Below are positions 3,293-23,375 of a DNA stretch of 24,000 bases, piece by piece. The stretch comes from Sulfolobaceae archaeon. Lineage in GTDB: Archaea > Thermoproteota > Thermoprotei_A > Sulfolobales > Sulfolobaceae. The DNA is taken from positions 32,054 through 56,053 of the forward strand of contig JAWARQ010000006.1 of NCBI GenBank assembly GCA_038893355.1, given 5' to 3'. The notes below the pieces were generated by a model, which was given only the letters and a program-made list of their open reading frames with translations, had not been told where the DNA came from and did no database searches. Numbering within the stretch: position 1 is the stretch's first letter; each line of letters opens with the position of its first letter. The position numbers and the translations under genes were made by a program.

Positions 3293-4222
3293 CTGTCTAA
3301 CGTTGATTTTCTCTTGGCTTATTAATCGTAGTGCTTCATTAGTATCTTCTTCAACTGCTGCATTGCTAGATATTATTGAAATTTCATTATTTAATAAATC
3401 ACTTATATCATAATCCAATTTAGAACCTTTATATGGAACTCCAAATAATAAAACCCTCCCGCCCTTTCTTGTAGAATATAAGCCTTGGAGTATGCCTTTT
3501 GGGTTACCGGTTGCAATTATGACTACATCAGCACCTCTTCCATCGCTTAACTTCCTTACTTCACTTACAATATCTGTTGAATTAGGATTTATTGCATAAT
3601 CTATAATCTTATGTTCTAGTGCGAAATTTAGTCTATAATCTGAAACGTCAGATGCTATTATCATATTTGCTCTATAAACCCTAGCCAGCAATGCATGTAA
3701 AAGACCCATAGGACCAGCACCTATTATTAATACAGTATCACCTTCCTCTATTCTTACCCTCCTTTGCGCCCTAATTACTGTCGCTAAAGGCTCTATAAAT
3801 ATACCATCTTCAAATGTAACATTTTGTGGTAGTTTTAATACTCCACCTCTCTCAATATTCCATGCCGGTACCCTAAAATATTCGCTAAAACCTCCGGGAT
3901 ATATGTTTGTTTTTCGATAATATTCGCACATCGTAGGACTTCCTTTCTTACAATAATAGCAGTTATAGCATGGTACATGATGGTGTGCAAAGACTCTATC
4001 CCCTTCCCTTATCCAATCCACTTTAGACTCTGCAACTATTCCCACGGGCTCATGACCTAAAATAGGTTGTGATGCGGTATATTCTCCCTTAATTTTCTCA
4101 ATATCTGTACCACACAAACCACAAGCTTTCATCTTTACTAATATCTCCCCATCAGTTATCTTAGGTATTTCGAGATCATTCCTTATTTCAAGCCTTCCGT
4201 TAGAAATTACTACAGCTTTCAT
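3200..4222 (-). CDS. Zinc-dependent medium-chain alcohol/polyol dehydrogenase (threonine/sorbitol dehydrogenase-like)
   Basis: 340 aa. Catalytic Zn ligands in CGLCGTD and GHEPVG. Structural Zn site CYNCYYCKKGSPTMC. Rossmann motif GAGPMG. Substrate cannot be assigned from sequence alone. Confidence 0.85.
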   Translation of the reverse strand: MKAVVISNGRLEIRNDLEIPKITDGEILVKMKACGLCGTDIEKIKGEYTASQPILGHEPVGIVAESKVDWIREGDRVFAHHHVPCYNCYYCKKGSPTMCEYYRKTNIYPGGFSEYFRVPAWNIERGGVLKLPQNVTFEDGIFIEPLATVIRAQRRVRIEEGDTVLIIGAGPMGLLHALLARVYRANMIIASDVSDYRLNFALEHKIIDYAINPNSTDIVSEVRKLSDGRGADVVIIATGNPKGILQGLYSTRKGGRVLLFGVPYKGSKLDYDISDLLNNEISIISSNAAVEEDTNEALRLISQEKINVRQLITHKFRIEEFYNAIRVAEEGKAIKVIIYD

Positions 4223-5845: not shown

Positions 5846-6137
5846 GCTTCGAGAGTTCTTCTTTTAGAGCTTCTAACTCCTTCTTGAGGTAAGCTATCTC
5901 ACTTTCATGAACATTTAATACTTTCTTTATTTCTTCAAAACTATCCTTATGGCTCTCCTTTAGTTTAATATTTCCTTCATTATCCACCTCTACAAATCCT
6001 AATCTTACTAATTCTCTAACATAACCTTTTACAGTCTTTGGAGAAACTTTTATTTCTAAAGCTAGATCTTTTATGTTAATAGTACCCTTCTCTTTTAGTA
6101 AATTTATAATATCTTGTAATCGTGGTGTTAATTCCAT
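5823..6137 (-). CDS. Small winged-helix DNA-binding protein with a C-terminal coiled coil (putative transcription regulator)
   Basis: 104 aa. The N-terminus (LQDIINLLKEKGTINIKDLALEIKVSPKTVKGYVRELVRLGFV) reads as a wHTH. The C-terminus (EIAYLKKELEALKEELSKLKKK) is heptad-like. It is divergent from the OCD-aminotransferase pair. Confidence 0.6.
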   Translation of the reverse strand: MELTPRLQDIINLLKEKGTINIKDLALEIKVSPKTVKGYVRELVRLGFVEVDNEGNIKLKESHKDSFEEIKKVLNVHESEIAYLKKELEALKEELSKLKKKGKV

Positions 6138-6196
6138 AGTTTAGAACTATTATAAAATTCTTTTTAAGCAATTTGGCATATTTCTCAAAGATAATT

Positions 6197-7156
6197 ATGG
6201 CATTATTAATCAAGGAGGAAGACGTAGAAGAATTGTTAACATTCGAAGATGCTTATAAAGCATTAAAAGATGCTTTTGGATTATTAGAGCATAAACTAAG
6301 CATAAATACAAAGAGGATTAGGACACCTTTTGCAGGAACTATCCTAGCTTATCAAGCTGGGGGGATGCTAGAGTATCTAGGCTTTAAAACCTATATTCCT
6401 GGTAGTAATGTAATTGGTATTTTGTTTAATAAAGAGGGAGAGCTGCTTGCAATTTTTGAGGCAGATAGATTAACTAGAGTCAGAACGACAGCTTTAGCTG
6501 TTTTAGCTTCGGATTTTATAAAGAAGAATTATTCTAATGTCGCAGTGATAGGATTAGGTAACCAAGGAATAGTTCAAGTCGAAGCATTTTATGAGTTAAA
6601 GAAATTAAAGGTTAAGGTATATACGAGAAGCAAGGAAAGGCTTGATAGAGCTCTAAAATTCTTTAGTAAGAGAGGCATAGATGTAGAAGTAAAAGATACG
6701 ATAAAAGATGCATGTAAGGAATCTGAAGTAATCACTACAATAACTTCTTCTAAAGACCCATTTATAAAATCAGAATATTTGGATAAAGGTTCACATATTA
6801 ATGCAATGGGTTCTGTAATTCCTGAAAGAGCTGAGATATTTCCTGAAGTTTTCAAAATGGCAAAATCAGTAGTTGTAGAGGATATAGAGCAAGCTAAGGA
6901 AGAGGCTGGTGATTTGATTTTAGCTTACAAAATGAAAATGCTTGAATGGTCTAAATTAATCCCACTTTCTTCTATCATCTTAGATAAGATTAGACCTAGA
7001 GAAAGTCAAGATGATATTACTGTATTTAAATCTGTTGGGATAGGACTAGAAGATGTAGCAGTAATGATAAGTCTTTACGAGAAAGCTAAAAAGAGGGGAG
7101 TTGGTACTGAAATAGAGGTAAAAGGTAAATGGTTTCCAAAATTGGAAGAGAAATAG
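6197..7156 (+). CDS. Ornithine cyclodeaminase/mu-crystallin family NAD(P)-dependent enzyme (archaeal alanine dehydrogenase / ketimine reductase-like)
   Basis: OCD-family layout with the Rossmann motif VIGLGNQG. The track ORF begins at TTG 6173. I prefer ATG 6197 (MALLIKEEDVEELL) because a TATA-like tttttaag (6161-6168) sits 29-36 nt upstream of it. Confidence 0.8.
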   Translation: MALLIKEEDVEELLTFEDAYKALKDAFGLLEHKLSINTKRIRTPFAGTILAYQAGGMLEYLGFKTYIPGSNVIGILFNKEGELLAIFEADRLTRVRTTALAVLASDFIKKNYSNVAVIGLGNQGIVQVEAFYELKKLKVKVYTRSKERLDRALKFFSKRGIDVEVKDTIKDACKESEVITTITSSKDPFIKSEYLDKGSHINAMGSVIPERAEIFPEVFKMAKSVVVEDIEQAKEEAGDLILAYKMKMLEWSKLIPLSSIILDKIRPRESQDDITVFKSVGIGLEDVAVMISLYEKAKKRGVGTEIEVKGKWFPKLEEK

Positions 7157-9340: not shown

Positions 9341-10324
9341 ATGGTTCCAATTATATTTTCTGATATTTATCTTTATCATAAACCGAGAGTAAATCATGTT
9401 GAAAATCCTACAAGATTAGTTAGAATTATTAAGAGTTTAGAACTTAAAGAAATTATTAAACCCAGTAAAGTAACGCTTAAGGATGTAGAGATAATACATG
9501 ATAAGGAATACATAGAGCTGGTTGAAGCATCTTCAAGATACGAAGAATGGCTAGATGATGACACCTATACTAATTCTTTCACGATAGAATCTGCACTTTA
9601 CGCTTTAGGTGGAACGCTCAAGGCTATGGAATTAAATGGATTTGCAATAGTAAGACCACCTGGTCATCATGCAGGGAAGAGTGGTAGAGCCCTTGGCGCT
9701 CCAACATTAGGTTTTTGTATATTTAATAATGTGGCTTTTGGTATTAAGAAATCTAGCGCTAAAAGAGCTGTAATAATAGACTTTGATGTTCATTACGGAA
9801 ATGGAACGCAAGAGATATTTTGGGACGATCCAAATGTAGTTCATATTGATATTCATCAAGATCCTATGACACTTTACCCTGGAACTGGTTTTCCAGAAAT
9901 GATTGGGGGTGAAGGTGCTGAGGGTACGAAGATTAATCTTATATTACCACCTTTAAGTTCTGATGACGTCTACCTAGAACTAATTCCTATAATCCAAGAA
10001 ATTATAGATGACTTTAAGCCAGATATAATTGCGTACTCTGCAGGATTTGATGCATTTGAAGGTGATGGACTAGCAGATATTATGGCAACAGAAGCTACTT
10101 ATTATCATTTAGGTTTAATCTCTAAAGGTTATAAAAGATTTGCAGTGTTAGAGGGTGGTTACAGTAGTGGGTTAGAAAGAGGAGTAAGGGCATTTATTGA
10201 TGGTCTTGATGGTCTTGATAAGGATTATAAACCTAAAAGTACTAAGGAAAGTGTAAAATCCATATTTAGAGAATATCTTAAAACCGAAAAGGATATCCTT
10301 AAAAAGTATTGGAAGATCACATAA
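9341..10324 (+). CDS. Histone deacetylase-family Zn amidohydrolase (AcuC / acetylpolyamine or protein-lysine deacetylase-like)
   Basis: 327 aa. Motifs: RPPGHHA, DFDVHYGNGTQ, SAGFDAFEGD, LEGGY. Confidence 0.85.
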   Translation: MVPIIFSDIYLYHKPRVNHVENPTRLVRIIKSLELKEIIKPSKVTLKDVEIIHDKEYIELVEASSRYEEWLDDDTYTNSFTIESALYALGGTLKAMELNGFAIVRPPGHHAGKSGRALGAPTLGFCIFNNVAFGIKKSSAKRAVIIDFDVHYGNGTQEIFWDDPNVVHIDIHQDPMTLYPGTGFPEMIGGEGAEGTKINLILPPLSSDDVYLELIPIIQEIIDDFKPDIIAYSAGFDAFEGDGLADIMATEATYYHLGLISKGYKRFAVLEGGYSSGLERGVRAFIDGLDGLDKDYKPKSTKESVKSIFREYLKTEKDILKKYWKIT

Positions 10325-10327
10325 TAG

Positions 10328-11185
10328 TTAGCAGGTATAATAACATTTTAGTGCAATATTGACAGAAGCGTTATAATCTCTATCAGCCTTCATTCCGCAT
10401 GATGGACAATAGAAGATTGAACCATAAACCTCACCATTCTTATAACCACAGTTTGAGCATATTTTAGAAGTAGCATATGCTTCAATTCTTTTATACTTTA
10501 TACCGCGGTAATATAGGCCCTTCTCTACTAAATTTTGAATAGACTTAAGTACCATTCCCCTTCTACCCTCAAATTCAGTTAGATCCTCTACTGCTACTAT
10601 CTTAGGATATAAACTTTCTATATAATTAATCACATCCTCAGCTATTTTTTGAATATATTTCCTTATTTTTTCTAGTTCTATAAAGGATTGTGGAGTTCCT
10701 ATAAATTTTGTTATATCTTCCGTAATTTCCTCTCCACTCCAAAATCTATACTTCCATACCTTTAAACCCTTTAATGCAACTACACTTACTATATTCCTTA
10801 TTCCAAAATCAATTCCAACAACGCTTTTCTCCCTCTCATATGCTAACAATACTTTTGTCCCCCTCTTTTTATCTATCTCGATAATTGCATATTTTGGTAT
10901 TCCAACTCTATTTGATTTTACTAATATATTTAATCTCTTTAACATATAAGGGTTATTTCCTTGAATATCAATTGGACCTATCTTTACCTTATCCTCCTCA
11001 ATGACTACTGGATACCCTTCTATATATGGGGGCCCTATTCCTCTTACTTTTTCATTTAATTTTTTAAGTGTGCTAATATAGTTTAGGTAATATAAGATAT
11101 CATTCTGAATCTTATCTAGCTTACCCTTTGAAATTATTACTGACTCATATAATTCATCTTCCATAACTGAAATCTCTTTGCTCAT
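10328..11185 (-). CDS. Miniature TnpB-like (IS200/IS605 OrfB / Cas12-related) RuvC + zinc-ribbon nuclease homologue
   Basis: 285 aa. RuvC-I VVGIDFGIRN (D126). RuvC-II IVAVEDL (E200). YATSKICSNCGY...YCPSCG is a CxxC...CxxC zinc ribbon. RuvC-III ADRDYNASVNIA. The ATG overlaps the upstream gene stop (ATGA). No TnpA is present in the window. Confidence 0.8.
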   Translation of the reverse strand: MSKEISVMEDELYESVIISKGKLDKIQNDILYYLNYISTLKKLNEKVRGIGPPYIEGYPVVIEEDKVKIGPIDIQGNNPYMLKRLNILVKSNRVGIPKYAIIEIDKKRGTKVLLAYEREKSVVGIDFGIRNIVSVVALKGLKVWKYRFWSGEEITEDITKFIGTPQSFIELEKIRKYIQKIAEDVINYIESLYPKIVAVEDLTEFEGRRGMVLKSIQNLVEKGLYYRGIKYKRIEAYATSKICSNCGYKNGEVYGSIFYCPSCGMKADRDYNASVNIALKCYYTC

Positions 11186-11886
11186 AAAGATAAAATTTCT
11201 CCTAATTCTAAACTTCTGGCTTCAATACCCAAGTAATACTTTAAGGTGGAAGAGAATACATATCCATTAACTTCATAGATTTTATAATACTCTTCTATAT
11301 CCCTTATTCTAAATTTATTATAATAGTGTGCGAAGTAGAGGTTCGGCTCATCATCCCAGAATACAAGAAGAGAGGAGTTTAAGCTAGTTGAGTATGGGCC
11401 TAGCCTATTGATTACTTGCTTATAACTTTCTAATACGTCAAAAGTATTAAGTAAGTCGATGATCTCCATAAACACTAAGTAACTATCAGTCCTTTGGAGT
11501 TCTTTATATTTAAATACATCCCTTTTCACAGAGCCATTATGGGCAAAAAATAATTCCTTATCCTTTAAACTATAATAGTAAGGGTGATTATGTAATACAC
11601 CCAATAAAAATTCTTTACTAGCCCTCCTAGCATGTATAATTCCAACTACTTCATCACCCTTAATTATGTCAAGGATCTCTACAAGACTTTCATCTTGATA
11701 AATGGGCAATGTGGATTTATGGTAAAGTATCCTCCATTTAGACCCTTTTTTAATGTAACAAACAATACCCCAACCATGTGGATGCATTCCGTATCTAGAA
11801 TAGATATCATTCTCTGCAGACTTTACCAGAGCACTAACAAAACTTCTATTAATTTCCTTACTCCTAAATGCAAGCAATCTACACAT
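11182..11886 (-). CDS. Class-II (Ntn) glutamine amidotransferase-like protein (YafJ/EgtC-type)
   Basis: 234 aa. It begins MC (Cys2 is the nucleophile after Met removal). Motifs: HPHGWG, IHARRAS, NHPY, FAHNGSV. It overlaps the upstream MBL gene by 8 nt. Confidence 0.8.
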   Translation of the reverse strand: MCRLLAFRSKEINRSFVSALVKSAENDIYSRYGMHPHGWGIVCYIKKGSKWRILYHKSTLPIYQDESLVEILDIIKGDEVVGIIHARRASKEFLLGVLHNHPYYYSLKDKELFFAHNGSVKRDVFKYKELQRTDSYLVFMEIIDLLNTFDVLESYKQVINRLGPYSTSLNSSLLVFWDDEPNLYFAHYYNKFRIRDIEEYYKIYEVNGYVFSSTLKYYLGIEARSLELGEILSL

Positions 11887-12576
11887 TTATAACTAATCCA
11901 TCTTCAGCTATCAAAAATTTATTTCTTGCACCTTCAATAATATCTTTCTCTATCTGAGAGGGAATATGTGTAAGTATAACTCTCTTTTCTGAAAATAACG
12001 AGATTAAATCCCTCAATGAAGAATGTCCCCATTTTCTACAATTATCTAGACAGCTACACTCATGAATAATTAGATCAGCATCTTTAGCTTCTTTTATAAT
12101 TTCCTCACAGGGTTCTGAAGTATCCCCAGAATATAATATTTTTCTATTCTTATCTAAAATTATGTATGATACTGCATAAATACTATGACATGATGGTATA
12201 GAATAAATATACAAATCATCCAGTTTAAGCTTTGGTAAATTATCTTCATAAATTATTGCCTCTACATTATTTCCTGCTCTAATATACGATTCTAAAATCT
12301 TAGAAAAGCCTACTGGAGAATGTACTTTAATTACCGGTAAATTGGAAAGTTTTCTTTGAACTAGATGATCGAAAATTCCATTAAAGTGATCAATATGAAG
12401 ATGTGTTATCATTATCGCTTCGAAGTTGTAGAGATTATAATCATCAATTCTCATATTTGCACCTGTTCCTAAATCTAATATTACTGAATTATTACCAGAA
12501 TTGATATAAATAGATGATTTAAACCTCTTAGTCCCCTTTGTAGATCCTGCACCAGTTCCCAGAAATATAATCTTCA
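11879..12576 (-). CDS. MBL-fold metallo-hydrolase (short RNase Z/PhnP-like phosphodiesterase type)
   Basis: Motifs: MKIIFLGTGAGS, DLGTG, ITHLHIDHFNG (HxHxDH), SGDT, HEC, GHSS. The track ORF starts at TTG 12589. I prefer ATG 12576 because a TATA-like ttttttaaat (minus strand, 12603-12612) lies 27-36 nt upstream of it. Confidence 0.8.
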
Positions 12577-12602
12577 TATTCTCGGTCAAATTTACTTACG
12601 AG

Positions 12603-12612
12603 ATTTAAAAAA
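12603..12612 (-). promoter_or_regulatory. TATA-like box for the MBL / amidotransferase / mini-TnpB operon
   Basis: The minus strand reads ttttttaaat, 27-36 nt upstream of ATG 12576. It sits in the 37-50-nt gap after the nitrilase stop. Confidence 0.4.
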
Positions 12613-12626
12613 TTCCGTATTTACTT

Positions 12627-13667
12627 CTACTTATCCTTTAACTTTAATCTCTTAATTAGCTTTTCAAATTTTTCAAAACCTATATCTATAGTTTCATCTC
12701 TTAGTCCTAGAGCCTTTCGTTCTATAGGCTTTCTCTCTTTTGCTCTATATAGTATACTAGCTATATCCCATCTTGTATAATGACCTAATGAGTCGAAATA
12801 AGCCTTTACTGCAAGAATTTCGTCAGTACTAATTTCAGCTACGATTATTTTCTCTTCATTAATCTGCGGTTTAACTATATATAATCCTGCTGGATTAACT
12901 ACCGAACTTCCTCCTGCTGCAATATCGAATTGATACTCTGCAATAAGGTCTGAAGGCATATACATATTAGCACTAACTACGAACGCCTGAGCTTCGAAAG
13001 CATATTCCCTGATTGCACTATCAATATCGCATTTACTTATTTCATCCTTAGATGGGTCGAATCTTCTTTTGGCGCCAGGATGACCTTCTTGAACCCAATA
13101 ACCGGGCCATACTGCAATATGAATCTCTTCTCCCATAGATTGCAAAACTGCTTTAATTATGTTCATGTGATTTTCGTAGCATACTAATCCTCCTACCCTT
13201 ATTCCACTGAGACTGCTAATTCTTAAAGTGGTTCCATCACCCATCTTCCATATCATTCTTTCTCCATGTGTTGGCATTACTTTTCTATGAACATTAGTTA
13301 TTTTACCTTTTTCATTTATAAAAACTAAAGAATTATATAAACTTCTACTGCCCTCTCTAGGATCCTTTTCAGAAATTCCTAAAACTATACTTATTTCCCT
13401 TTCTCTAGATATATCTTTAATGCTTTCTAGATCAGTTTTAACATTTACCGAATTCTTGTAGTATTCAACCATCATTTCAGTCCATTTACTTATTGGCAAA
13501 ATTCCCCTCCAATATGGATAGCCAGGAATAAATGCCTCTGGAAACACTATTAGCTTAGCACCTTGTTTTGCAGCATCTTCTATTGCCTTACATGCTCTAT
13601 TTATAGTTCCTTCTTTGTTCATATAATCTGGAGCTATTTGCGCTATAGCTACTTTTATTATACTCAT
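12627..13667 (-). CDS. Nitrilase-superfamily carbon-nitrogen hydrolase (nitrilase branch-like)
   Basis: 346 aa. The Glu-Lys-Cys triad context is visible: VFPEAF, HRKVMP, GLVCYENH. A roughly 50-aa charged C-terminal tail follows. Confidence 0.85.
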   Translation of the reverse strand: MSIIKVAIAQIAPDYMNKEGTINRACKAIEDAAKQGAKLIVFPEAFIPGYPYWRGILPISKWTEMMVEYYKNSVNVKTDLESIKDISREREISIVLGISEKDPREGSRSLYNSLVFINEKGKITNVHRKVMPTHGERMIWKMGDGTTLRISSLSGIRVGGLVCYENHMNIIKAVLQSMGEEIHIAVWPGYWVQEGHPGAKRRFDPSKDEISKCDIDSAIREYAFEAQAFVVSANMYMPSDLIAEYQFDIAAGGSSVVNPAGLYIVKPQINEEKIIVAEISTDEILAVKAYFDSLGHYTRWDIASILYRAKERKPIERKALGLRDETIDIGFEKFEKLIKRLKLKDK

Positions 13668-13818
13668 AAATAATAAATTGTCATAATAATTTTTAAGGCT
13701 TTTCTTTATATTAGAATTTTTAATATGACTTAAAATAATAAATTATTTAATTATAGAAACTAAAAATATACTAAGAACTAAGATAAGAGTGAAGTACAGC
13801 CATTAAGTTTTTACCGTG

Positions 13819-13933
13819 GCGTAACTTACTTACTTTTAATTACTTCTAATTTTGCCACTGTCACCTATATAATAAACATGTCCATGATAAAAATACTAAT
13901 TAGAAGTGATTAAAAAATAGTTAAAAGTTACGC
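13819..13933. repeat. Long imperfect inverted repeat (potential 115-nt hairpin or cruciform)
   Basis: Hand-paired. The outer 9-bp stem is 13819-13827 (gcgtaactt) with 13925-13933 (aagttacgc). The inner 18-bp stem is 13834-13851 with 13898-13915 and has one T:G position. There is an internal loop and a 46-nt apical loop (13852-13897). Confidence 0.75.
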
Positions 13934-13939
13934 AGAAAT

Positions 13940-13959
13940 ATTACAGTCTCTACTGTAAT
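13940..13959. repeat. Perfect 8-bp stem / 4-nt loop palindrome
   Basis: attacagt-ctct-actgtaat, read directly from the sequence. It is followed by the palindrome aattag-a-ctaatt (13957-13969). Confidence 0.7.
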
Positions 13960-14045
13960 TAGACTAATTGCTAGCAGTCCTACTAAGCTGTGAGCTTATA
14001 TACTTTACGATACTCAAAATCATGGTAGCTTGTCTTCAGAAAATG

Positions 14046-14053
14046 ATTTATAA
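14046..14053 (+). promoter_or_regulatory. TATA-like box for the GT2-Cas4-like pair
   Basis: atttataa lies 24-31 nt upstream of ATG 14077. Confidence 0.4.
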
Positions 14054-14076
14054 TATAAATAATTCATTAAAAACAG

Positions 14077-15243
14077 ATGCTAGATATTATCATTATCTCA
14101 TTCGGTATTATTGCCTCGTCATGGAGTATATATAATTCAGTATTGGGAATTATAGGTGTTTTATGGAGGAAAAATTATGAAGAAAAGGAATTTAGTAGTG
14201 TTACTTTTTCTCTAATAATTCCCGCAAAGAATGAGGAGAAAGTCTTACCTAGATTACTGGATAGACTAGTTAATCAAGAGTATGATAAATCTAAATTGGA
14301 AATTATAGTAGTAGAAGATGGTTCTACAGATTCAACTCTTGAAATTTGTGAAAAGTATCGCAATAGGTACGATTTTATTAAATGTATTCACCTAGAGCCT
14401 GCAACGGTACCTAATGGTAAAAGTAGAGCATTAAACTACGCTTTAAAAATCTCAAGAGGTGATATTATAGGAATATTTGATGCGGATACAGTTCCTAAAC
14501 TGGATGATTTGGCTTATGTTGCGTCTAAATTTAAAGATGAAAGAGTTGCTGCGGTACAAGGTATGTTGTTACCAATTAATGTTAGAGAAAGTATTATTAG
14601 TAGGTTTGCTTCGATTGAGGAATTAATTTATGAATATTCAATTGCAGGTAGGGCTAGGTTAGGTTTTTTTATTCCTTTAGAGGGTACTCTAACTTTCATA
14701 AGAAAAGATGTGATAGAGAAATTGGGCGGCTTTAATGAATACTCACTTACTGAAGATTTAGATCTTAGCTTAAAATTAATTGCAAATGGTTATAAGATAG
14801 TATATTTACCCTCTGCAGTAGCCTGGAGAGAAGTCCCCATTAGCCTTAGATCTCTAATAAAGCAAAGGCTTAGATGGTATAGAGGTCATTTAGAGGTAAG
14901 AATAGGTAAAGTGAGATTAGATTGGAGAATAATTGATGGTGTATTAATTTTAGCCACGCCAATATTTATAGTTATGAATGTTGTGAATTATTCTATTGCA
15001 ATATTTTTCCCTAATTTCATAGTTATTGTTGCAGCGTTAATATCTGGAGTAGCGAGTATAATCTCCTTAGGCCTAGTTATTATAATTTCTAGACTTCATA
15101 TGATTGAATTTTTCTATTCTTTCCTAACCTTCTTTTATTTCAATTTAGTCTTAGGGTTAAATATGACTGCAATCTTTATGGAAATTATAAAGTATCCAAG
15201 GTTCTGGATAAAAACTGAAAGAAGTGGAGGGATAACTATTTGA
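14077..15243 (+). CDS. Membrane-embedded processive family-2 glycosyltransferase (cellulose/chitin/PNAG synthase-like)
   Basis: 388 aa. N-terminal TM helix. Motifs: IIPAKNEE, VEDGSTD, FDADT (DxD), TEDLDLS (TED), QRLRWYRG (QxxRW, the processive signature). Several C-terminal TM helices follow. Confidence 0.8.
   Translation: MLDIIIISFGIIASSWSIYNSVLGIIGVLWRKNYEEKEFSSVTFSLIIPAKNEEKVLPRLLDRLVNQEYDKSKLEIIVVEDGSTDSTLEICEKYRNRYDFIKCIHLEPATVPNGKSRALNYALKISRGDIIGIFDADTVPKLDDLAYVASKFKDERVAAVQGMLLPINVRESIISRFASIEELIYEYSIAGRARLGFFIPLEGTLTFIRKDVIEKLGGFNEYSLTEDLDLSLKLIANGYKIVYLPSAVAWREVPISLRSLIKQRLRWYRGHLEVRIGKVRLDWRIIDGVLILATPIFIVMNVVNYSIAIFFPNFIVIVAALISGVASIISLGLVIIISRLHMIEFFYSFLTFFYFNLVLGLNMTAIFMEIIKYPRFWIKTERSGGITI
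15226..15230 (+). promoter_or_regulatory. Shine-Dalgarno-like site for the operon-internal Cas4-like gene
   Basis: GGAGG sits inside the GT2 3' end, 9 nt upstream of TTG 15240. Confidence 0.4.
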
Positions 15244-15860
15244 TCGTTGAATTACTCTATAAAAAGAAGCTTGAGGAGTATTACTCTCATGAAAGGAAAG
15301 AGAATGTATTTTATGTTACGGATCTTACTAGATGTCCACTTAAAGTAAAATTTGAGCAAGAATATAGGGAACTAGCTCTCTCAGAAATCTTTACACCAGC
15401 AGGAATATTAGGTGATTTAGTACATAGAGGTATACAAAGCTCTCTTAATATCGAAGGTTATGAGGCTGAAGTAGAAGTAGAGAAAGAAAAAGGTCTAGAG
15501 ATTGAGGGCAAGAGTTATATTATAAAGGGTAGAGCGGATATCGTGCTAAAGAGTAAGACTAATAATGAGACTCTTATAATTGAAATTAAGACTGCTAGGA
15601 GGGATGATGGATTACCTCAAAAGCATCATATTTTACAATTAAGGTTATATCTTTGGTTATTTGAAGTTAATAAAGGAATTTTACTTTATGTAACACCAGA
15701 TAGGATAACTGAATATATAATTGAAGGTGCATTGGATACTGCGAGTGTAATGAGGTTAGTAGAGGAAAATATTAGACTGGCCCCTGCTCCAAGATATATC
15801 TGGGAGTGTTCCTATTGTATATTTGCAAAGCTATGCCCAAATAAAGCTAGCAATAGATAA
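15240..15860 (+). CDS. Stand-alone Cas4-family PD-(D/E)XK nuclease with a 4-Cys Fe-S cluster motif
   Basis: 206 aa. N-terminal Cys in VTDLTRCPLK. Motifs: GRADIV (D), IIEIKT (ExK), QLRLYLW (QxxxY). C-terminal CSYCIFAKLC (CxxCx5C). The TTG start overlaps the GT2 stop (TTGA), and GGAGG lies 9 nt upstream. Confidence 0.8.
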   Translation: MIVELLYKKKLEEYYSHERKENVFYVTDLTRCPLKVKFEQEYRELALSEIFTPAGILGDLVHRGIQSSLNIEGYEAEVEVEKEKGLEIEGKSYIIKGRADIVLKSKTNNETLIIEIKTARRDDGLPQKHHILQLRLYLWLFEVNKGILLYVTPDRITEYIIEGALDTASVMRLVEENIRLAPAPRYIWECSYCIFAKLCPNKASNR

Positions 15861-16403
15861 TATTATACTAAATAAAGAGTAAATAGATAATATTCTATCA
15901 TAATTTACACTACAAATAACTTTTATTGCATTTATTGAATATTTTTTATAAATTAATAACATTATAGATTTTGTCAATAATGATATGAAATATACTGTAA
16001 TTATCGAATAATTCCAAAATATTTCATAAAATATTAAGAGAAAATAATCCATAGATATTAATGGGTTTAGAGATGACCATTTTACTATATTTGTCAATTC
16101 TACCTTTAAGCTGCCACTATAGTGGAATAATCTTCCGAAAAAGTATTTTAATATTGAATGAATTGCAATTATTATACCCATGATCAAGGTCAATAACAAT
16201 TTTCCATCGTAGGAAATTAAAAACGTTGAAACTATTAGAGCTGGAATTATAGATATAGTGGTAAAATTTATTATATTAAAAACTGCTAAGACTGGACTTC
16301 TCGTTGAAATATAATATGAAAAAAGACTTCCTTTAGATGGATCAACCCCTAATAGTATTCCAAATATGATACTAAGGATAGCAGTAAGAGTCTGAACTAG
16401 CAT
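15831..16403 (-). CDS. Polytopic membrane protein of unknown function (about 5-6 TM helices)
   Basis: A 190-aa open frame is unlikely to arise by chance in stop-rich AT-rich DNA. The sequence is strongly hydrophobic and periodic. It overlaps the SBP56 3' end by 32 nt on the same strand. Confidence 0.55.
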   Translation of the reverse strand: MLVQTLTAILSIIFGILLGVDPSKGSLFSYYISTRSPVLAVFNIINFTTISIIPALIVSTFLISYDGKLLLTLIMGIIIAIHSILKYFFGRLFHYSGSLKVELTNIVKWSSLNPLISMDYFLLIFYEIFWNYSIITVYFISLLTKSIMLLIYKKYSINAIKVICSVNYDRILSIYSLFSIILSIASFIWA

Positions 16404-17766
16404 CTCCTCCCCTTAGTCTAACTTGATGTGCTCTAGCATCACCGAAATCAACAAAGAATTTCTTATCCACCTCAAGACCACCTTCTGGATTAGCATTTAC
16501 CTTGACTACCCATCCTTTGATGCCTTCTGGATAAAATTGATTATCCCATGAGCTATATAGAGAGTTAGTCACATAAATTCTCCTTCCATCCCTGCTAATT
16601 TCTATCATTTGCGGTGCTCCAGTAAGCTTGTGCCCAGCTGGATGATTTGCTCTATGTAATATTCCACCCAATTTTACAACACCAGTTAGCCTAGGCCTAA
16701 ACGGATCAGACACATTATATTGCCTCAATTCGCCTATGCCCCATAGACTTACGTATAAGAATTTATCATCTAGCGATAAATCAATGTCAGTAACTAATGG
16801 TGGCACCGCCTTGAAAGGCTTAAGTATCTCTGGGAGTTGACCTTCCGTAGGTTCTGCAGGGATTTCAATAACTTTTTCAGCTTGAAACTTTCCATCTTCA
16901 TAGAACCATAGCCAGATTGAACTACTTAAGTCCTTCAAACTCACTACCACATTAACAAATCCCATTAGTTTCGTCGGGTCATGTAGAGGTCTTAGCTCTA
17001 GGACCATTCTATTTTCACTACCAAGTTCAACTGAGGCTATTTTCTTTCTCTTTCTCATATCCCAAAAATGAATTTTATTACCATATCTATCCTTTAAGTG
17101 CTCTAATTTTAATCCGTTCTCTATTGTATTTGGGACAGCCCATTCACTCGTAACCATTATTTCATTTGGTAAATTCCACCAAAAGTCGTATGCATAGTAC
17201 TGATCACCTCTATCAATTTCCCACCTTCCTAAAGGTTCGAAGGAATAGTGATCTAGTATAAATATTCCGCCAGGCCCTTCGCCTTCCGAATTCCCTAAAG
17301 CACTAATATATATCCCGTCTGGTCCACAGTGTACCGTATGTAATCTTGTATAGCCACTACTTTCAATAACTTCCTTAGGTTCAATGACTTTCACCAGCCT
17401 AGGATTTGTTGGGTCTTGTTTTGTATCATATATATATACTCTTGATGATCTTAACCCTGGAACGATTAAATATCTCCTTTGTAAGTTTGGTTTTGCATTA
17501 GGACATAATGCAGAACTGCAACTATTCCAGCCAAAATGATGAAATTCATCACCTACATACAATGCTTCTACTTTATTTATTATTTTAGAATAATTAGGGG
17601 ATTCTGGATTTACATCTACCACTGCTATAAAGTCTGGTTTTTGAATACCAGTACCTACGTATAGTCCTACAACATAAATAATATCCTCTGGCGGTGCTTT
17701 CATAGCCATTTTTGGCGATGGATAAAATGTTGGGTCTCCTTTAAATATATCAGTAATTGACTTCAT
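16372..17766 (-). CDS. Selenium-binding protein 56 family (SBP56 / methanethiol oxidase-like beta-propeller)
   Basis: 464 aa. SBP56-type N-terminus GDPTFYPSPKMAMKAPPE. Also HHFGWNSCSS, HTVHCGPDG and the C-terminal HQVRLRGGDASSDSYCY. Confidence 0.9.
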   Translation of the reverse strand: MKSITDIFKGDPTFYPSPKMAMKAPPEDIIYVVGLYVGTGIQKPDFIAVVDVNPESPNYSKIINKVEALYVGDEFHHFGWNSCSSALCPNAKPNLQRRYLIVPGLRSSRVYIYDTKQDPTNPRLVKVIEPKEVIESSGYTRLHTVHCGPDGIYISALGNSEGEGPGGIFILDHYSFEPLGRWEIDRGDQYYAYDFWWNLPNEIMVTSEWAVPNTIENGLKLEHLKDRYGNKIHFWDMRKRKKIASVELGSENRMVLELRPLHDPTKLMGFVNVVVSLKDLSSSIWLWFYEDGKFQAEKVIEIPAEPTEGQLPEILKPFKAVPPLVTDIDLSLDDKFLYVSLWGIGELRQYNVSDPFRPRLTGVVKLGGILHRANHPAGHKLTGAPQMIEISRDGRRIYVTNSLYSSWDNQFYPEGIKGWVVKVNANPEGGLEVDKKFFVDFGDARAHQVRLRGGDASSDSYCYP

Positions 17767-17839
17767 TATAATATAATTAGCTATCTTAACTTTAAAACTA
17801 TATTACACTGCAAGATTTGCACTAACTTATAAAATAGAG

Positions 17840-17848
17840 TTATAAATT
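17840..17848 (+). promoter_or_regulatory. TATA-like box for thiDN
   Basis: ttataaatt lies 21-29 nt upstream of ATG 17869. No SD is visible, which fits a leaderless or short-leader mRNA. Confidence 0.4.
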
Positions 17849-17868
17849 AGCTTATTAGACCTTATATT

Positions 17869-19059
17869 ATGAGAAAGAGACCAGTAGTTCTTACAATAGC
17901 TGGTAGTGATTCGGGAGGTGGGGCGGGACTTCAAGCCGATTTAAAGACATTTACTGCATTAGGAGTATTTGGAACTGTTGTTGTTACTGGAATAACTGCT
18001 CAAAATACTACTGGCGTATATGCTGTACATGAGGTGCCGATAGAGATAATAGAAGCTCAGTTCGATGTAATTATGAACGATTTAAATCCAAAATTTGCTA
18101 AAACTGGTATGTTAGCTTCAAATAAAATAATAAATTTAGTAAAAAGAAAAGTTGAACAATACGAAATAAAGTTAGTACTCGACCCAGTTATGGTAGCAAA
18201 AACTGGTTCTCCACTCGTTACGGAGGATATTGTACCTTCTCTAATCGAGCTAGCGAGGAAATCTATAATAGTAACTCCTAATAGATTCGAGGCTGAGAAA
18301 CTTCTTGGAGAGAAAATTGATGATATAAAGAATGCTGCAAAAAAACTATACGAAAAACTTTCTACAAATGTTGTGGTAAAGGGTATAAGGGGAATAGATT
18401 ATGCTATTATTGATGGAGAATTATTAGAGCTCAAAATGAAAGAGGTTGAAACAAGAAATACTCATGGTAGCGGTGATGTATTTTCTGCATCTTTAACTGC
18501 TTACCTGGCTTTAGGTTATAACGTTAAGGATGCAGTTATTAATGCAAAAAAATTTGTAACTTTCGCGCTAGAAAACTCACTAGATTTAGGGAAAGGAATA
18601 GGGCCTGTCGATCCTTTTTCACCTGCAGAAAGTTTAATTCAAAAAGAAATAGCAAGAGAAACTCTTGAGAAATTTCTTTACGAATTTGAAAAAGACCCTA
18701 TATATAGAGATCTCATTCCGCATGATGAAATGGCTAACGTAGGTTACTTAACGGATTACAATGAGGTTGCAACATTAGCAGGTGGTATTGTAAGATATAT
18801 TGACTGGCTGAAAATTAATGGTCCAATAATATTTGGGATAAATAATTTAGTTACGAAAGTACTATTAAATACGAAAAAGAGAATAGGGATTTCATTACCG
18901 TTAAGTAAAAAGATTCTGGATGCAGCTGAAAAAGGTATAATAAAATTAACAGAAAGTGGGGCTCTTGGTGATGCAATAGTTACAGAAGGTAAGGCAATTA
19001 TAACTGCTAATGATTATAATGAACTTTTAGAAAAGTTGAGGAGAGTAGTAAGTAGTTGA
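17869..19059 (+). CDS. thiDN: Bifunctional hydroxymethylpyrimidine/phosphomethylpyrimidine kinase + ThiN-type thiamine-phosphate synthase (archaeal ThiDN fusion)
   Basis: 396 aa. N-terminal ThiD: VLTIAGSDSGGGAGLQADLKT, DPVMVAKTG, THGSGDVFSA. The roughly 130-aa C-terminal extension is consistent with a ThiN domain. Confidence 0.85.
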   Translation: MRKRPVVLTIAGSDSGGGAGLQADLKTFTALGVFGTVVVTGITAQNTTGVYAVHEVPIEIIEAQFDVIMNDLNPKFAKTGMLASNKIINLVKRKVEQYEIKLVLDPVMVAKTGSPLVTEDIVPSLIELARKSIIVTPNRFEAEKLLGEKIDDIKNAAKKLYEKLSTNVVVKGIRGIDYAIIDGELLELKMKEVETRNTHGSGDVFSASLTAYLALGYNVKDAVINAKKFVTFALENSLDLGKGIGPVDPFSPAESLIQKEIARETLEKFLYEFEKDPIYRDLIPHDEMANVGYLTDYNEVATLAGGIVRYIDWLKINGPIIFGINNLVTKVLLNTKKRIGISLPLSKKILDAAEKGIIKLTESGALGDAIVTEGKAIITANDYNELLEKLRRVVSS

Positions 19060-19940
19060 TTACGGTAGTTGGTAGCTATAACGTTGATTTTATAATTAAA
19101 GTAAGAAGATTCCCAGAAGTAGATGAGACAATATTTGCAGAAGAAGTTATCATATCGCATGGAGGTAAGGGTTCTAATCAGGCAGTTTCTGCGCAGAGAC
19201 TAGAATCAAGGACAAGACTAATCGCTGCAGTAGGTGAAGATAGTTTTGGATATGATGCTTTAAAGTTTTGGAAAAATGAAGGCATTGATACGAAATACGT
19301 TAAGGTTAAGAGGGGTATAAAGACTGGAAATGCCTACATAATACTAAACCGGCAAGGAAAAAGTATGATAATTGTTGATCGAGGTGCAAATTCTGCATTG
19401 GAAATTGAGGATGTTAAAGATGGTCTAGATGGAAAAATTCTCTTAACTCAACTAGAAGTAAATGAGGATGTAGTAGCATATTCTTTAAAAAACTTTGATG
19501 GGTTAAGAATATTGAATCCAGCACCTGCAGTTCTCAGTAACACAGAAATCCTAAGAGACGTTGATATAATAACTCCTAACGAAGTAGAACTATCTGCTCT
19601 TGCTGGAACTAACAACATAATTGATGGGGCAGAAAGATTATTAAGAAGAGTAAGAGGAGCCGTAATAGTAACATTAGGCGAGAAGGGATGTCTTGTAGTA
19701 GATAGGTCAGGGAAAAAGGAATTAATAAGTGCACCCAAGGTTAACGTCGTTGATGAAACAGGAGCAGGGGATGTATTTAATGGTGCTTTAGCTTCTGCAT
19801 TATTAAAGGGGTATGATATAATAACTTCAGCAAGAATTGCTACGTATATTGCATCATACTCGGTAACAAAGATAGGGGCTTTAGGTCCCACGTTGAAAGA
19901 AGTTAAAGCTTTCCTGGAAAATTTAGGAGAAAGCTTCTAA
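19056..19940 (+). CDS. PfkB-family carbohydrate/nucleoside kinase (ribokinase-like)
   Basis: 294 aa. Motifs: [28 protein letters not shown]. The TTG start overlaps the thiDN stop (TTGA). Confidence 0.8.
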
Positions 19941-21327: not shown

Positions 21328-22329
21328 ATGATAGTATCTACGATAGGAAGTCACTCATCTCTACAAATTTTGCATGGTGCTAAGAAAGAGGGATTTGAAA
21401 CTGCAGTAATTACTGAATCTAAAAGATTAAATTTTTATAAGCAATTTTGGTTTATAGACAAAATTTTAACTTTTGAAAGCTTAGATCAAGCAGTTTCGAA
21501 TATTAATCTATTACATGATTCGGTCTTTATCCCACACGGTAGTTTAGTCGAGTACCTAGGAATGGATAGAGTAAGGAAGATTAATGTAAGAATATTTGGT
21601 AATAAGAACATCTTCGAGTGGGAGTCAAATCAGTATAAGAAGATGGAGTTATTAAAAAGGTCAGGGATAAAAATTCCTACTCATTTTGAGTCTGTAGAAG
21701 ATGTAGATAGAATGGTTATAGTAAAATTACATGGCGCAAAGGGTGGAAGGGGTTATTTCGTTGCAAGGAATAAAGCAGAACTAAAAAATGGTTTAAAAGA
21801 ATTAATTGAAAAGAAATTAATTAATGATATAAATGATGTTATAATTCAAGAGTACATAATAGGAGTTCCAATGTATTTTCAGTTCTTTTACAGCCCACTA
21901 CTTAATAGAAATGAGATAATGGGAATAGATATCAGATATGAAACTAATATTGATGGATTAAGAAGGATCCCTTTTAATAGTATTAGTGTAAAGCCAACAT
22001 TTGTTGTAGTCGGAAATATTCCTGCAGTTGCAAGGGAAAGTTTGTTACCCAAAGTTTATGAGTACGCAGAAAATTTTGTGAAAACAACTAAAGAGCTTGT
22101 GCCTCCAGGGATGATTGGACCTTACTGTTTAGAGTCTATAGTTACTGACGAGCAGGAAATAGTAGTTTTTGAATTTTCTGGTAGAATCGTAGCAGGGACT
22201 AACTTATATACAAACGGAAGCCCATATAGCTGGTTCTACTGGGACGAACCAATGAGTATGGGTAAAAGAATTGCAAGAGAAGTTAAATTAGCAATAAGTA
22301 AAAATAGACTTAATGAGGTAACTACATAA
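21328..22329 (+). CDS. purP: 5-formaminoimidazole-4-carboxamide ribonucleotide (FAICAR) synthetase, ATP-grasp PurP
   Basis: 333 aa. Archaeal PurP layout: [16 protein letters not shown] at the N-terminus, the Gly-rich loop [10 protein letters not shown], and IQEYIIG. Confidence 0.85.
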
Positions 22330-23375
22330 TGAATAAGATTGCATGTTTGGCTAGTCATTCAGCACTAGACGTTTTCGATGGTGCAAAGGACGAAGGATTT
22401 AGAACAATAGCATTAGCTAAAAAAGGGAGAGAAAGACCTTATCTGGAATTTAAAAGAATAGTAGATGATATAATAATTTTGAATGATTTTAAAGAGATAG
22501 CATCTGAAGAAGTTCAAGAGAAGTTAGTTAAAGAAAATGCAATATTAGTCCCTAATAGAAGTTTGGCAGTATATCTAGGTTATGATAATATAGAGAGAAT
22601 GAGAGTAAAATTCTTCGGGAACAAATTTATGTTAAGATGGGAAGAGAGAATTGGTGAAAAGAATTATTATAAATTACTTGATGAAGCTAAGATTAATAGG
22701 CCAAGGAATTATAAGATTAACGAAGTTGATGGTCCAGTTATAGTAAAAATGCCAGAGGCTAAGAGAAGAATAGAGAGAGGTTTCTTTTTTGCTATAAATA
22801 GGGAAGATTTAGAATCTAAAATTTCTAGGCTAATAAAGCAAGGTATAATAGATGAGGAATCATTAAAGAGTATGATCATAGAAGAATTCATTTTTGGTGC
22901 ACATTTTAACGTCAATTACTTTAATAGTATAGTAGAGAATAGAGTAGAGATAATAAGCATAGATAGAAGAATTCAAAGTGATTGGGATTCTCTATATAGA
23001 TTGCCTGCAGAAATCCAAATAAAGCTAAATAGGACTCCAAGATTAATAGAAGTTGGTCATGAACCGGCGACGATCAGGGAAAGTTTGCTCGAAAAATTGT
23101 TTGAAATCGGTTATTCTTTCGTAGAGGCAACTAGAAAACTAGAACCACCTGGCATAATTGGACCTTTTACACTACAACTAATGGTAACACCAGATCTTGA
23201 TGTAGTAGTTTATGATGTAGCACCTAGGATAGGGGGAGGTACAAACGCCCATATGGGAATCGGTGGTAATTACTCTAAGCTTTACTTCGGTTACCCAGTG
23301 AGTATGGGAAGAAGGATTGCAATTGAAATAAAAAGAGCAATAAATAATGGAATGTTAGATAAAATCCTAACTTAA
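22329..23375 (+). CDS. purP: PurP-family paralogue (FAICAR synthetase-like ATP-grasp protein)
   Basis: 348 aa, colinear with the upstream PurP ([29 protein letters not shown]). The Gly-rich loop is replaced by [13 protein letters not shown]. The ATG shares 1 nt with the upstream stop (TAATG). Confidence 0.75.

Follow-up and report, generated by a model that had tools for sequence, protein, structure and literature searches.

How does a gene of the TnpB superfamily come to stand directly behind two enzyme genes in an archaeal genome, and is it still a mobile gene, a working part of the unit that it follows, or a host gene in its own right? The question is raised by a 24,000-nt stretch of DNA (the window) from a Sulfolobaceae archaeon (GenBank assembly GCA_038893355.1, contig JAWARQ010000006.1, positions 32,054 to 56,053, forward strand), in which a metallo-beta-lactamase (MBL)-fold hydrolase gene, a class-II N-terminal nucleophile (Ntn) amidotransferase gene (GATase) and a short tnpB-like gene (mini-TnpB) follow one another on the minus strand. 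An initial annotation read the three as a translationally coupled operon whose last cistron is an exapted, catalytically intact TnpB, with a possible role of the MBL protein in guide-RNA maturation. We consider it likely that mini-TnpB is a domesticated TnpB lacking the recognition (REC) lobe, a RuvC nuclease that normally has its own promoter and lies beside the GATase gene by descent. It belongs to the "GATase-TnpB" clade published by Altae-Tran et al. 2023 (PNAS, PMC10691335), and the exaptation itself is not new.

Distribution, immobility and selection of mini-TnpB

We found 18 orthologues of tnpB, encoding proteins of 272–285 amino acids (aa) with 40–74% identity to the window protein, in Sulfurisphaera, Saccharolobus, Sulfolobus, Acidianus, Metallosphaera, Stygiolobus and metagenome-assembled genomes (MAGs). 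A pattern-based scan of genome contigs returned a single tnpB locus per genome; the scan was limited by its pattern, missed known carriers such as S. solfataricus, and was not used for claims of absence. In S. solfataricus itself, one identical tnpB context was present in 24 contigs. Twelve of 14 genome loci kept the order MBL–GATase–tnpB, and the genes next in line were usually a convergent gene of the histone deacetylase (HDAC) family and pepQ. Across the Sulfolobaceae, the ratio of nonsynonymous to synonymous change (dN/dS) of tnpB was 0.07–0.11, no higher than the values of the MBL and GATase genes, and a codon-aware alignment of 16 orthologues showed synonymous sites to be saturated throughout the coding sequence (CDS), including its 3' end. 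When 1.84 billion cluster representatives were searched with mini-TnpB, only seven reached E<1e-30, and the next matches were ordinary TnpBs of 370–450 aa that scored at most 84 bits and matched the RuvC/TNB half only; the family is therefore small and isolated, and it is confined to Sulfolobales-type archaea.

Signs of mobility were absent from everything that we searched for them. Plasmids and viruses yielded no close tnpB copies, only ordinary TnpBs of less than 32% identity, and around the gene we detected no insertion sequence (IS) ends, terminal repeats or hairpins beyond short chance repeats. The hallmarks of an IS200/IS605 element (a TnpA or serine recombinase partner, left-end and right-end (LE/RE) hairpins, near-identical copies) were all missing, and Pfam scans of the real open reading frames (ORFs) of the window confirmed that none carries a Y1 transposase domain. 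These results support the view that mini-TnpB is an immobilised, vertically inherited, single-copy host gene under strong purifying selection, and with it the exaptation first proposed from the window: the gene is single-copy, syntenic in most loci and selected, without TnpA or IS ends.

Homologous loci in other genomes are cited below by L numbers where they must be told apart. In one of these, L017, a frameshift splits mini-TnpB (6001-6833) into ORFs of 153 and 101 aa, with the MBL gene, the GATase gene and a small gene described below (the 88-aa gene) intact; the MAG has about 5x coverage, and the frameshift may be an assembly error or mark a true pseudogene.

An alternative is that an IS inserted recently behind a metabolic operon, or that what lies there is the decaying remnant of one, in either case without host function. 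Membership in the TnpB superfamily, a length well short of the 370–450 aa of ordinary TnpBs, and the L017 frameshift are what such an insertion would leave. The orthologues, however, are 40–74% identical at the same locus across genera, with dN/dS near 0.1 and invariant catalytic residues; the gene is single-copy, many scattered near-identical copies with IS ends were looked for and not found anywhere searched, and the frameshift comes from a MAG of 5x coverage. The comparative data refute this explanation, and the probability that we leave it is vanishingly small.

Catalytic residues and predicted fold

The C-terminal part of mini-TnpB matched the Pfam family Cas12f1-like_TNB (PF07282) at residues 216-277 (E 9.6e-16, 58 bits against a cut-off of 26.3), and the NCBIfam model guided_TnpB gave 55.5 bits, below its cut-off of 100. 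The RuvC-I aspartate, RuvC-II glutamate and RuvC-III aspartate occur in order, with the TNB finger inserted in RuvC, and the retention of catalytic residues noted from the window was borne out: D126, E200, D270 and all four cysteines of the zinc finger (CxxC...CxxC) are invariant across the 18 orthologues. A profile search of the PDB matched mini-TnpB to Cas12f and TnpB, with Cas12f as the best PDB sequence match, and defence-system models likewise gave Cas12f-type matches to the RuvC/TNB part; the same models gave no match for the GATase and a chance-level match only for the MBL protein. One PADLOC profile named 'Csx1' (PDLC01039) matched residues 116-278, again the RuvC/TNB part (E 5e-17), and its name seems misleading.

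The AlphaFold2 model (pLDDT 85.6, pTM 0.71) consists of two short strands (10-19), a single helix (23-42) at the position of the REC lobe, a beta region resembling the wedge (WED) domain (60-117), RuvC from residue 121, the zinc finger and a C-terminal helix. Of the WED and REC domains that characterise the TnpB/Cas12 superfamily, the model thus has WED-like strands and a predicted REC of one helix. The best Foldseek matches of the model were AsCas12f (E 9e-12), ISFba1 TnpB and Fanzor2. Because it has kept the zinc finger, the WED barrel and all of the RuvC active site, mini-TnpB most likely still cuts nucleic acid.

The GATase–tnpB junction in relatives

The window was described as a chain of three genes joined by start/stop overlaps, and three consecutive minus-strand ORFs are indeed there; of the two overlaps, only the one between MBL and GATase is conserved. 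That 8-nt overlap (ATGTGTAG) recurred in all ten relatives in which the junction could be read from ORF coordinates, and because the same 8 nt are kept in every one of them it is not a chance feature. The GATase–tnpB gap is variable, ranging from 16 to 115 nt in loci without an intervening gene. In seven of 12 syntenic relatives a conserved gene for a protein of 87-89 aa, the 88-aa gene, lies between the two; purifying selection acts on it (dN/dS about 0.08), a TATA-like element of its own lies upstream, and it is absent from the window and five other syntenic loci. Its product has no relative in Pfam, PADLOC or the PDB and no profile–profile relation to TnpB, and could be a partner of mini-TnpB.

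Several relatives depart further from the order in the window. In L078 (5438-6274), and likewise in L079 and L080, the tnpB orthologue (42% identity) is on the opposite strand and convergent with the GATase gene; it appears inverted in place, its stop 38 nt from that of GATase, as if the breakpoints had flanked tnpB alone. In Sulfolobales archaeon HS-7 and in L006, tnpB stands alone in unrelated contexts. About 350 nt upstream of the lone tnpB of L006, on the minus strand (3332-3583), lies a divergently oriented gene for an 83-aa protein that looks by eye like a ribbon-helix-helix (RHH) protein and recalls the RHH-TnpB exaptations of PMC10691335. The MBL orthologue of Sulfolobus sp. UBA167 lies apart, on a different contig, between aldose epimerase and nadA (L081, 881-1582), and pfkB, GATase, the 88-aa gene and tnpB remain together (L009). 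Sulfodiicoccus acidiphilus carries thiDN, pfkB, MBL and GATase followed by an esterase gene, with no adjacent tnpB.

The synteny comparison gave a divided answer: the order of the trio is kept in most loci, yet Sulfodiicoccus has the MBL–GATase pair without an adjacent tnpB and the junction itself is variable. To judge from the gene maps, the same-strand order, lack of an internal promoter and conserved coupling expected of a conserved tricistronic operon are not shared by the relatives. That tnpB is the conserved terminal cistron of a three-gene functional operon is not supported, given the relatives' own TATA-like elements and spacers, the 88-aa insertion, the inversion and the relocation. 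The operon-like joining of tnpB to both enzyme genes appears to be a local and uncertain feature rather than a conserved functional link; read-through co-transcription with MBL–GATase is possible in the window lineage, as a property that is not conserved.

Start codon and promoter of tnpB

The coupling of GATase and tnpB in the window depends on which start codon is used. The 4-nt ATGA overlap of GATase stop and tnpB start exists only if translation begins at ATG 11185, and is lost if it begins at Met8 (ATG 11164), the position at which 16 of the 18 orthologues start. An in-frame upstream ATG (from ...TTATGA) is found only in the window and in L076, a relative of 74% identity. From the GATase stop to Met8 there are 17 nt in the window, against 16 nt in L077, a relative of 59% identity without the upstream ATG. 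Because most orthologues begin at Met8 and L077 lacks the upstream ATG, the ATGA overlap may be an artefact of taking the longest ORF.

In nearly all relatives, a TATA-like box (ATTTAAATAG, TTTTATAAGG, GTTTTTTAGG or similar) is centred 24-29 nt before the tnpB start, a spacing that has the geometry of a leaderless Sulfolobus gene. The window has a candidate element of this kind, AAATTTTATC (11199-11190), whose distance to Met8 (about 30 nt) equals that between the MBL TATA box and ATG 12577, and which may serve as the tnpB promoter. The consensus TTTAAATA also occurs at 11514-11507; the earlier statement that the only TATA-like box lies upstream of the MBL gene was wrong. A bacterial promoter and terminator scan gave shuffle-level results and, with bacterial models on an archaeal host, is uninformative.

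Search for a guide RNA

In the window only 3 nt separate the ends of the HDAC-family gene and tnpB, too few for a guide-RNA gene downstream; most relatives also carry a convergent HDAC-family gene at tnpB, and the two abut or overlap there. Within the tnpB CDS, RNAalifold gave a structure conservation index (SCI) of about 0 for every 150-nt window on both strands, and no suppression of synonymous change was seen anywhere in the 16 aligned orthologues. An RNA inside the CDS was rejected on the saturated synonymous sites and the SCI, and one spanning the stop codon was rejected as well, since the region across the stop and 130 nt downstream (antisense to the HDAC 3' end) had an SCI of at most 0.08. 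Rfam searches at gathering thresholds and at E<=1 gave no guide-RNA match, no tRNAs were found, and near the trio we detected no conserved non-coding DNA. The sole Rfam match, a sub-threshold one to the fluoride riboswitch inside the HDAC CDS, was treated as chance.

The guide RNA that TnpB and Cas12 proteins have at or after the 3' end of their genes was thus not found in cis, and the usual cis-encoded omega-RNA is very unlikely at this locus. The nuclease probably works without a locally encoded guide, being either independent of RNA or supplied with an RNA made elsewhere; within the domesticated-nuclease reading, we hold no guide at all and a guide from elsewhere to be about equally probable.

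Mini-TnpB might nevertheless still be RNA-guided, by an RNA that is encoded elsewhere or evolves too fast, with the 88-aa protein perhaps replacing REC in some lineages. The retained WED, RuvC and TNB parts and a fold nearest to those of RNA-guided Cas12f and TnpB would fit such a mechanism, as would the position of the conserved 88-aa gene (dN/dS 0.08) directly upstream of tnpB in seven loci. In TnpB and Cas12f, REC holds the guide–target duplex, and in the model of mini-TnpB it is reduced to one helix. There is also no downstream room, no conserved sequence or structure in or beside the CDS and no Rfam match, the 88-aa gene is missing from the window and five other syntenic loci, and the published analysis likewise doubts RNA binding (PMC10691335). 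On balance, we regard continued RNA guidance as unlikely, with some modest probability left to it.

More speculative still, the REC-less 278-aa mini-TnpB may have kept a means of targeting, which would make it the smallest nuclease derived from TnpB in nature to do so; a trans-encoded RNA could serve, or a protein partner, the 88-aa protein in some lineages and the MBL protein or the Ntn hydrolase in others. We give this idea a small chance; if it holds, the GATase–tnpB adjacency kept through five rearrangements would mark a Sulfolobaceae-specific module for nucleic-acid processing or defence.

The MBL and GATase genes and their ancestral operon

The family assignments first made from the window were confirmed for all three proteins: Lactamase_B_2 with partial RNase Z/PhnP-like matches, GATase_4, and Cas12f1-like_TNB/TnpB. 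Beside its Pfam match to Lactamase_B_2, the MBL protein matched RNase Z, PhnP and cyclic-nucleotide phosphodiesterases in part and below threshold, and it lies below every curated cut-off; against the NCBIfam RNase_Z model (TIGR02651) it scored 99.5 bits, in two pieces, where the cut-off is 293. Its best PDB matches were ELAC2/RNase Z, Apyc1 and PhnP, and it carries the motif HLHIDH (of the HxHxDH type). The family is specific to Sulfolobaceae, its next relatives being true RNase Z proteins of 302-323 aa at 24-29% identity. RNase Z proper, with its tRNA-binding flexible arm, has about 300 aa and matches the model over its full length above the cut-off; the MBL protein has neither that length nor that score, and by its sequence it is a short paralogue derived from RNase Z, about 70 aa shorter than the true enzyme. 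The GATase matched Pfam GATase_4 (E 8e-08) and, weakly, PDB 1te5, with Cys2 as the Ntn nucleophile, and its orthologues are limited to Sulfolobales.

In S. solfataricus, S. tokodaii, L077, L078 and Sulfodiicoccus, the gene order is thiDN–pfkB–MBL–GATase with start/stop overlaps; the ancestral thiDN–ribokinase–MBL–GATase unit looks metabolic. Judging from gene order, its pfkB would be SSO0004, which is listed as the S. solfataricus ribokinase (PMC8551123); a literature search on the locus tags SSO0004-SSO0009 found only SSO0004 mentioned, as ribokinase. In the window, an inversion has separated thiDN and pfkB from the MBL gene: they occupy the opposite strand, some 5 kb from its start on the upstream side, and a nitrilase gene (12627-13667) is now directly upstream of MBL. 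The MBL TATA box is lineage-specific, the ribokinase gene abutting the MBL start in relatives; MBL would own this box because the inversion cut MBL–GATase from thiDN–ribokinase. Gene context favours a small-molecule (ribose or cofactor) role for MBL–GATase. The MBL sequence would also be compatible with RNA processing, and adjacency is all that ties it to tnpB. The metabolic operon with a captured IS fragment, named as the alternative from the outset, comes closer to the evidence, except that tnpB is no fragment but a host gene under selection.

The three proteins could instead form one functional module, encoded by a translationally coupled tricistronic operon in which the MBL protein matures a guide or helps to degrade nucleic acid. 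Same-strand chaining in the window and L076, true RNase Z as the nearest outgroup of MBL, the adjacency of the trio in 12 of 14 loci, the similarly narrow taxonomic range of all three families and a GATase–tnpB adjacency that persists through five rearrangements would all be expected of such a module. The comparison across relatives goes the other way: only the MBL–GATase junction is conserved, the tnpB of relatives has its own promoter-like element and spacer, it is on the opposite strand in L078-L080 and stands by itself in HS-7 and L006, UBA167 has its MBL gene elsewhere, and Sulfodiicoccus has MBL–GATase without an adjacent tnpB. MBL–GATase is also the tail of the thiDN–ribokinase operon, the MBL protein is about 70 aa short of RNase Z and scores 99.5 against 293 bits, and RNAalifold and Rfam searches at the locus found no RNA substrate. 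We judge a three-protein module improbable, and the proposal that the MBL protein is a guide-RNA maturase is not supported, given the low RNase Z score, the ribokinase-operon partner and the failure to find a substrate.

A proposed history and the points that weigh against it

We suggest that a tnpB of the IS200/IS605 type was immobilised in an ancestor of the Sulfolobaceae, just downstream of the thiDN–ribokinase–MBL–GATase operon and ahead of a convergent gene. It would then have lost nearly the whole REC lobe and been inherited vertically as a single copy since. In most relatives tnpB would be a transcription unit of its own with a leaderless mRNA, its TATA box 25-30 nt before the start, and it would have stayed beside GATase by descent from the insertion site, the spacer offering little room for breakpoints of rearrangements to fall in. 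In the window lineage, a 17-nt spacer with an in-frame upstream ATG would create the apparent ATGA overlap, the inversion would have detached the unit from thiDN–ribokinase with MBL gaining its own TATA box, and transcription from the MBL promoter may also run on through tnpB. The domesticated nuclease would be independent of MBL and GATase.

Several observations weigh against parts of this history. GATase–tnpB adjacency has outlasted no fewer than five rearrangements that arose independently: a new block upstream (L008), loss of the HDAC-family gene (L005, L011 and L017), the inversion in the window and L076, the MBL relocation in UBA167 and the in-place inversion in L078. Such persistence could point to a functional tie and not only to a spacer too short for breakpoints to hit often. 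The distribution of all three protein families is likewise narrow and centred on Sulfolobaceae, and S. acidocaldarius gave no match for any of them. Both the window and L076 have retained the upstream ATG, in frame and overlapping the stop codon of GATase, and GATase–tnpB coupling may be real in that lineage. The promoter calls are sequence motifs in a genome of 32% GC, a fast-evolving structured RNA or a trans-encoded RNA would evade all the RNA tests applied, and absence of tnpB from a genome is weak evidence, since the pattern scan missed known carriers such as S. solfataricus.

Gene calls and neighbouring genes

The ORF listing gives three consecutive minus-strand ORFs at 11879-12589, 11182-11886 and 10328-11185; orthologues and the NCBI gene call place the MBL start at ATG 12577 and not at TTG 12589, the start of the longest ORF. 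Pfam scans of all real ORFs of the window returned housekeeping and metabolic genes only.

Table 1. Features of the locus in the window and positions of the 88-aa gene in related loci.
Feature	Sequence	Positions	Strand	Remarks
Mini-TnpB gene (GATase-TnpB clade)	window	10328-11185	minus	285 aa from ATG 11185; 278 aa from Met8, ATG 11164
Class-II (Ntn) amidotransferase-like gene (GATase)	window	11182-11886	minus	234 aa, starts MC
MBL-fold hydrolase gene	window	11879-12577	minus	232 aa
MBL/GATase overlap ATGTGTAG	window	11879-11886	minus	8-nt start/stop overlap
TATA box of the MBL–GATase unit, TTTTTAAA	window	12604-12611	minus	about 30 nt ahead of ATG 12577
Candidate internal TATA-like element, AAATTTTATC	window	11190-11199	minus	within the 3'-terminal GATase codons, about 30 nt ahead of Met8
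D126 codon, RuvC-I catalytic Asp (GIDFG)	window	10808-10810	minus	aligns to Cas12f RuvC-I motif
E200 codon, RuvC-II catalytic Glu (AVEDL)	window	10586-10588	minus	aligns to Cas12f MElL motif
D270 codon, RuvC-III catalytic Asp (KADRDYNA)	window	10376-10378	minus	aligns to Cas12f aDyNAA motif
TNB zinc finger, C243-x2-C246 ... C260-x2-C263	window	10397-10459	minus	four Cys invariant
HDAC-family gene	window	9341-10324	plus	convergent with tnpB
thiDN	window	17869-19059	plus	Pfam
pfkB/ribokinase-like gene	window	19056-19940	plus	Pfam
88-aa gene	L005	5711-5980
88-aa gene	L008	5671-5937
88-aa gene	L009	5718-5981
88-aa gene	L010	5683-5952
88-aa gene	L012	2140-2409
88-aa gene	L016	725-988
88-aa gene	L017	5711-5980

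Compared with the arrangement in S. solfataricus and S. tokodaii, the block of a family 2 glycosyltransferase gene (GT2), a Cas4-like PD-(D/E)XK nuclease gene, thiDN and pfkB (14077-19940) is inverted with respect to MBL. Between the Cas4-like gene and thiDN, a gene for a selenium-binding protein (16372-17766) and a 190-aa ORF (15831-16403) have been inserted. The presumed breakpoint of the inversion is the unusually long (409 nt), AT-rich intergenic region at 13668-14076 between the divergent nitrilase and GT2 genes, which had no Rfam match and is not conserved among relatives. The Cas4-like gene (15240-15860, plus strand), which we take to be SSO0001 of S. solfataricus, is a stand-alone gene in a syntenic block that is conserved in relatives, and no CRISPR array or cas genes lie beside it in the window. 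Further along the plus strand, two tandem paralogous ATP-grasp (PurP-like) genes with DUF1246/DUF1297 domains (21328-22329 and 22329-23375) abut stop to start beside adenylosuccinate lyase.

Comparison with known systems

The clade described as GATase-TnpB comprises Sulfolobaceae TnpBs of about 280 aa that neighbour a glutamine amidotransferase gene; an RNA gene would not fit downstream at their loci, the proteins have no domains but the wedge and an active RuvC, and their function is given as unclear and "possibly RNA-independent" (PMC10691335). The window matches contigs of Sulfolobaceae MAGs identically, and its gene shares every feature of the clade: a Sulfolobaceae host, a length of 278-285 aa, a GATase_4 gene upstream, immobility and an intact RuvC. 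We found no follow-up work on 'GATase-TnpB' in the literature searched. Beyond the passages of PMC10691335 on this clade, our comparison adds the MBL–GATase coupling, the thiDN–ribokinase genes, the putative own promoter of tnpB, the 88-aa gene, the inverted or relocated tnpB cases and explicit negative tests for a cis-encoded RNA. The putative promoter, the probable Met8 start, the failure to detect an RNA in cis, the 88-aa protein as a possible, optional partner and the ancestral operon narrow the search for a function, and the operon logic and the MBL–guide link proposed from the window fail across relatives.

For the MBL protein, the nearest known systems are the RNase Z, PhnP and Apyc1 phosphodiesterases, with which it has the HxHxDH motif and the MBL fold in common. 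RNase Z has about 305 aa, against 232 aa in the window protein, whose genomic partner is a ribokinase operon and not RNA genes.

Among RNA-guided nucleases, Cas12f (type V-F, for example AsCas12f, 8j12) is the best structural and PDB sequence match of mini-TnpB, which is about 140-250 aa shorter and has no REC lobe and no adjacent CRISPR array or cas genes. With the TnpBs of IS200/IS605 elements (for example ISDra2 TnpB, PDB 8bf8/8exa), it has the RuvC triad, the CxxC...CxxC TNB finger and the WED fold in common; in contrast to these, it is about 120 aa shorter, has a predicted REC of one helix and is inherited vertically in single copy, and at its locus no TnpA, LE/RE or omega-RNA was found. 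The parallel with the TldR repressors (10.1101/2023.11.30.569447), drawn at the outset, holds in that both are domesticated tnpB genes fixed beside non-transposon genes. The two differ in that TldR has lost the RuvC residues and has a guide RNA downstream, whereas D126, E200 and D270 are all present in mini-TnpB and no guide could be detected for it. Exapted TnpBs that retain the nuclease site are rare, and the GATase-TnpB clade, with roughly the shortest TnpB-like protein that has an intact RuvC, is relevant both to minimal nucleases and to the routes by which transposon genes become host genes.

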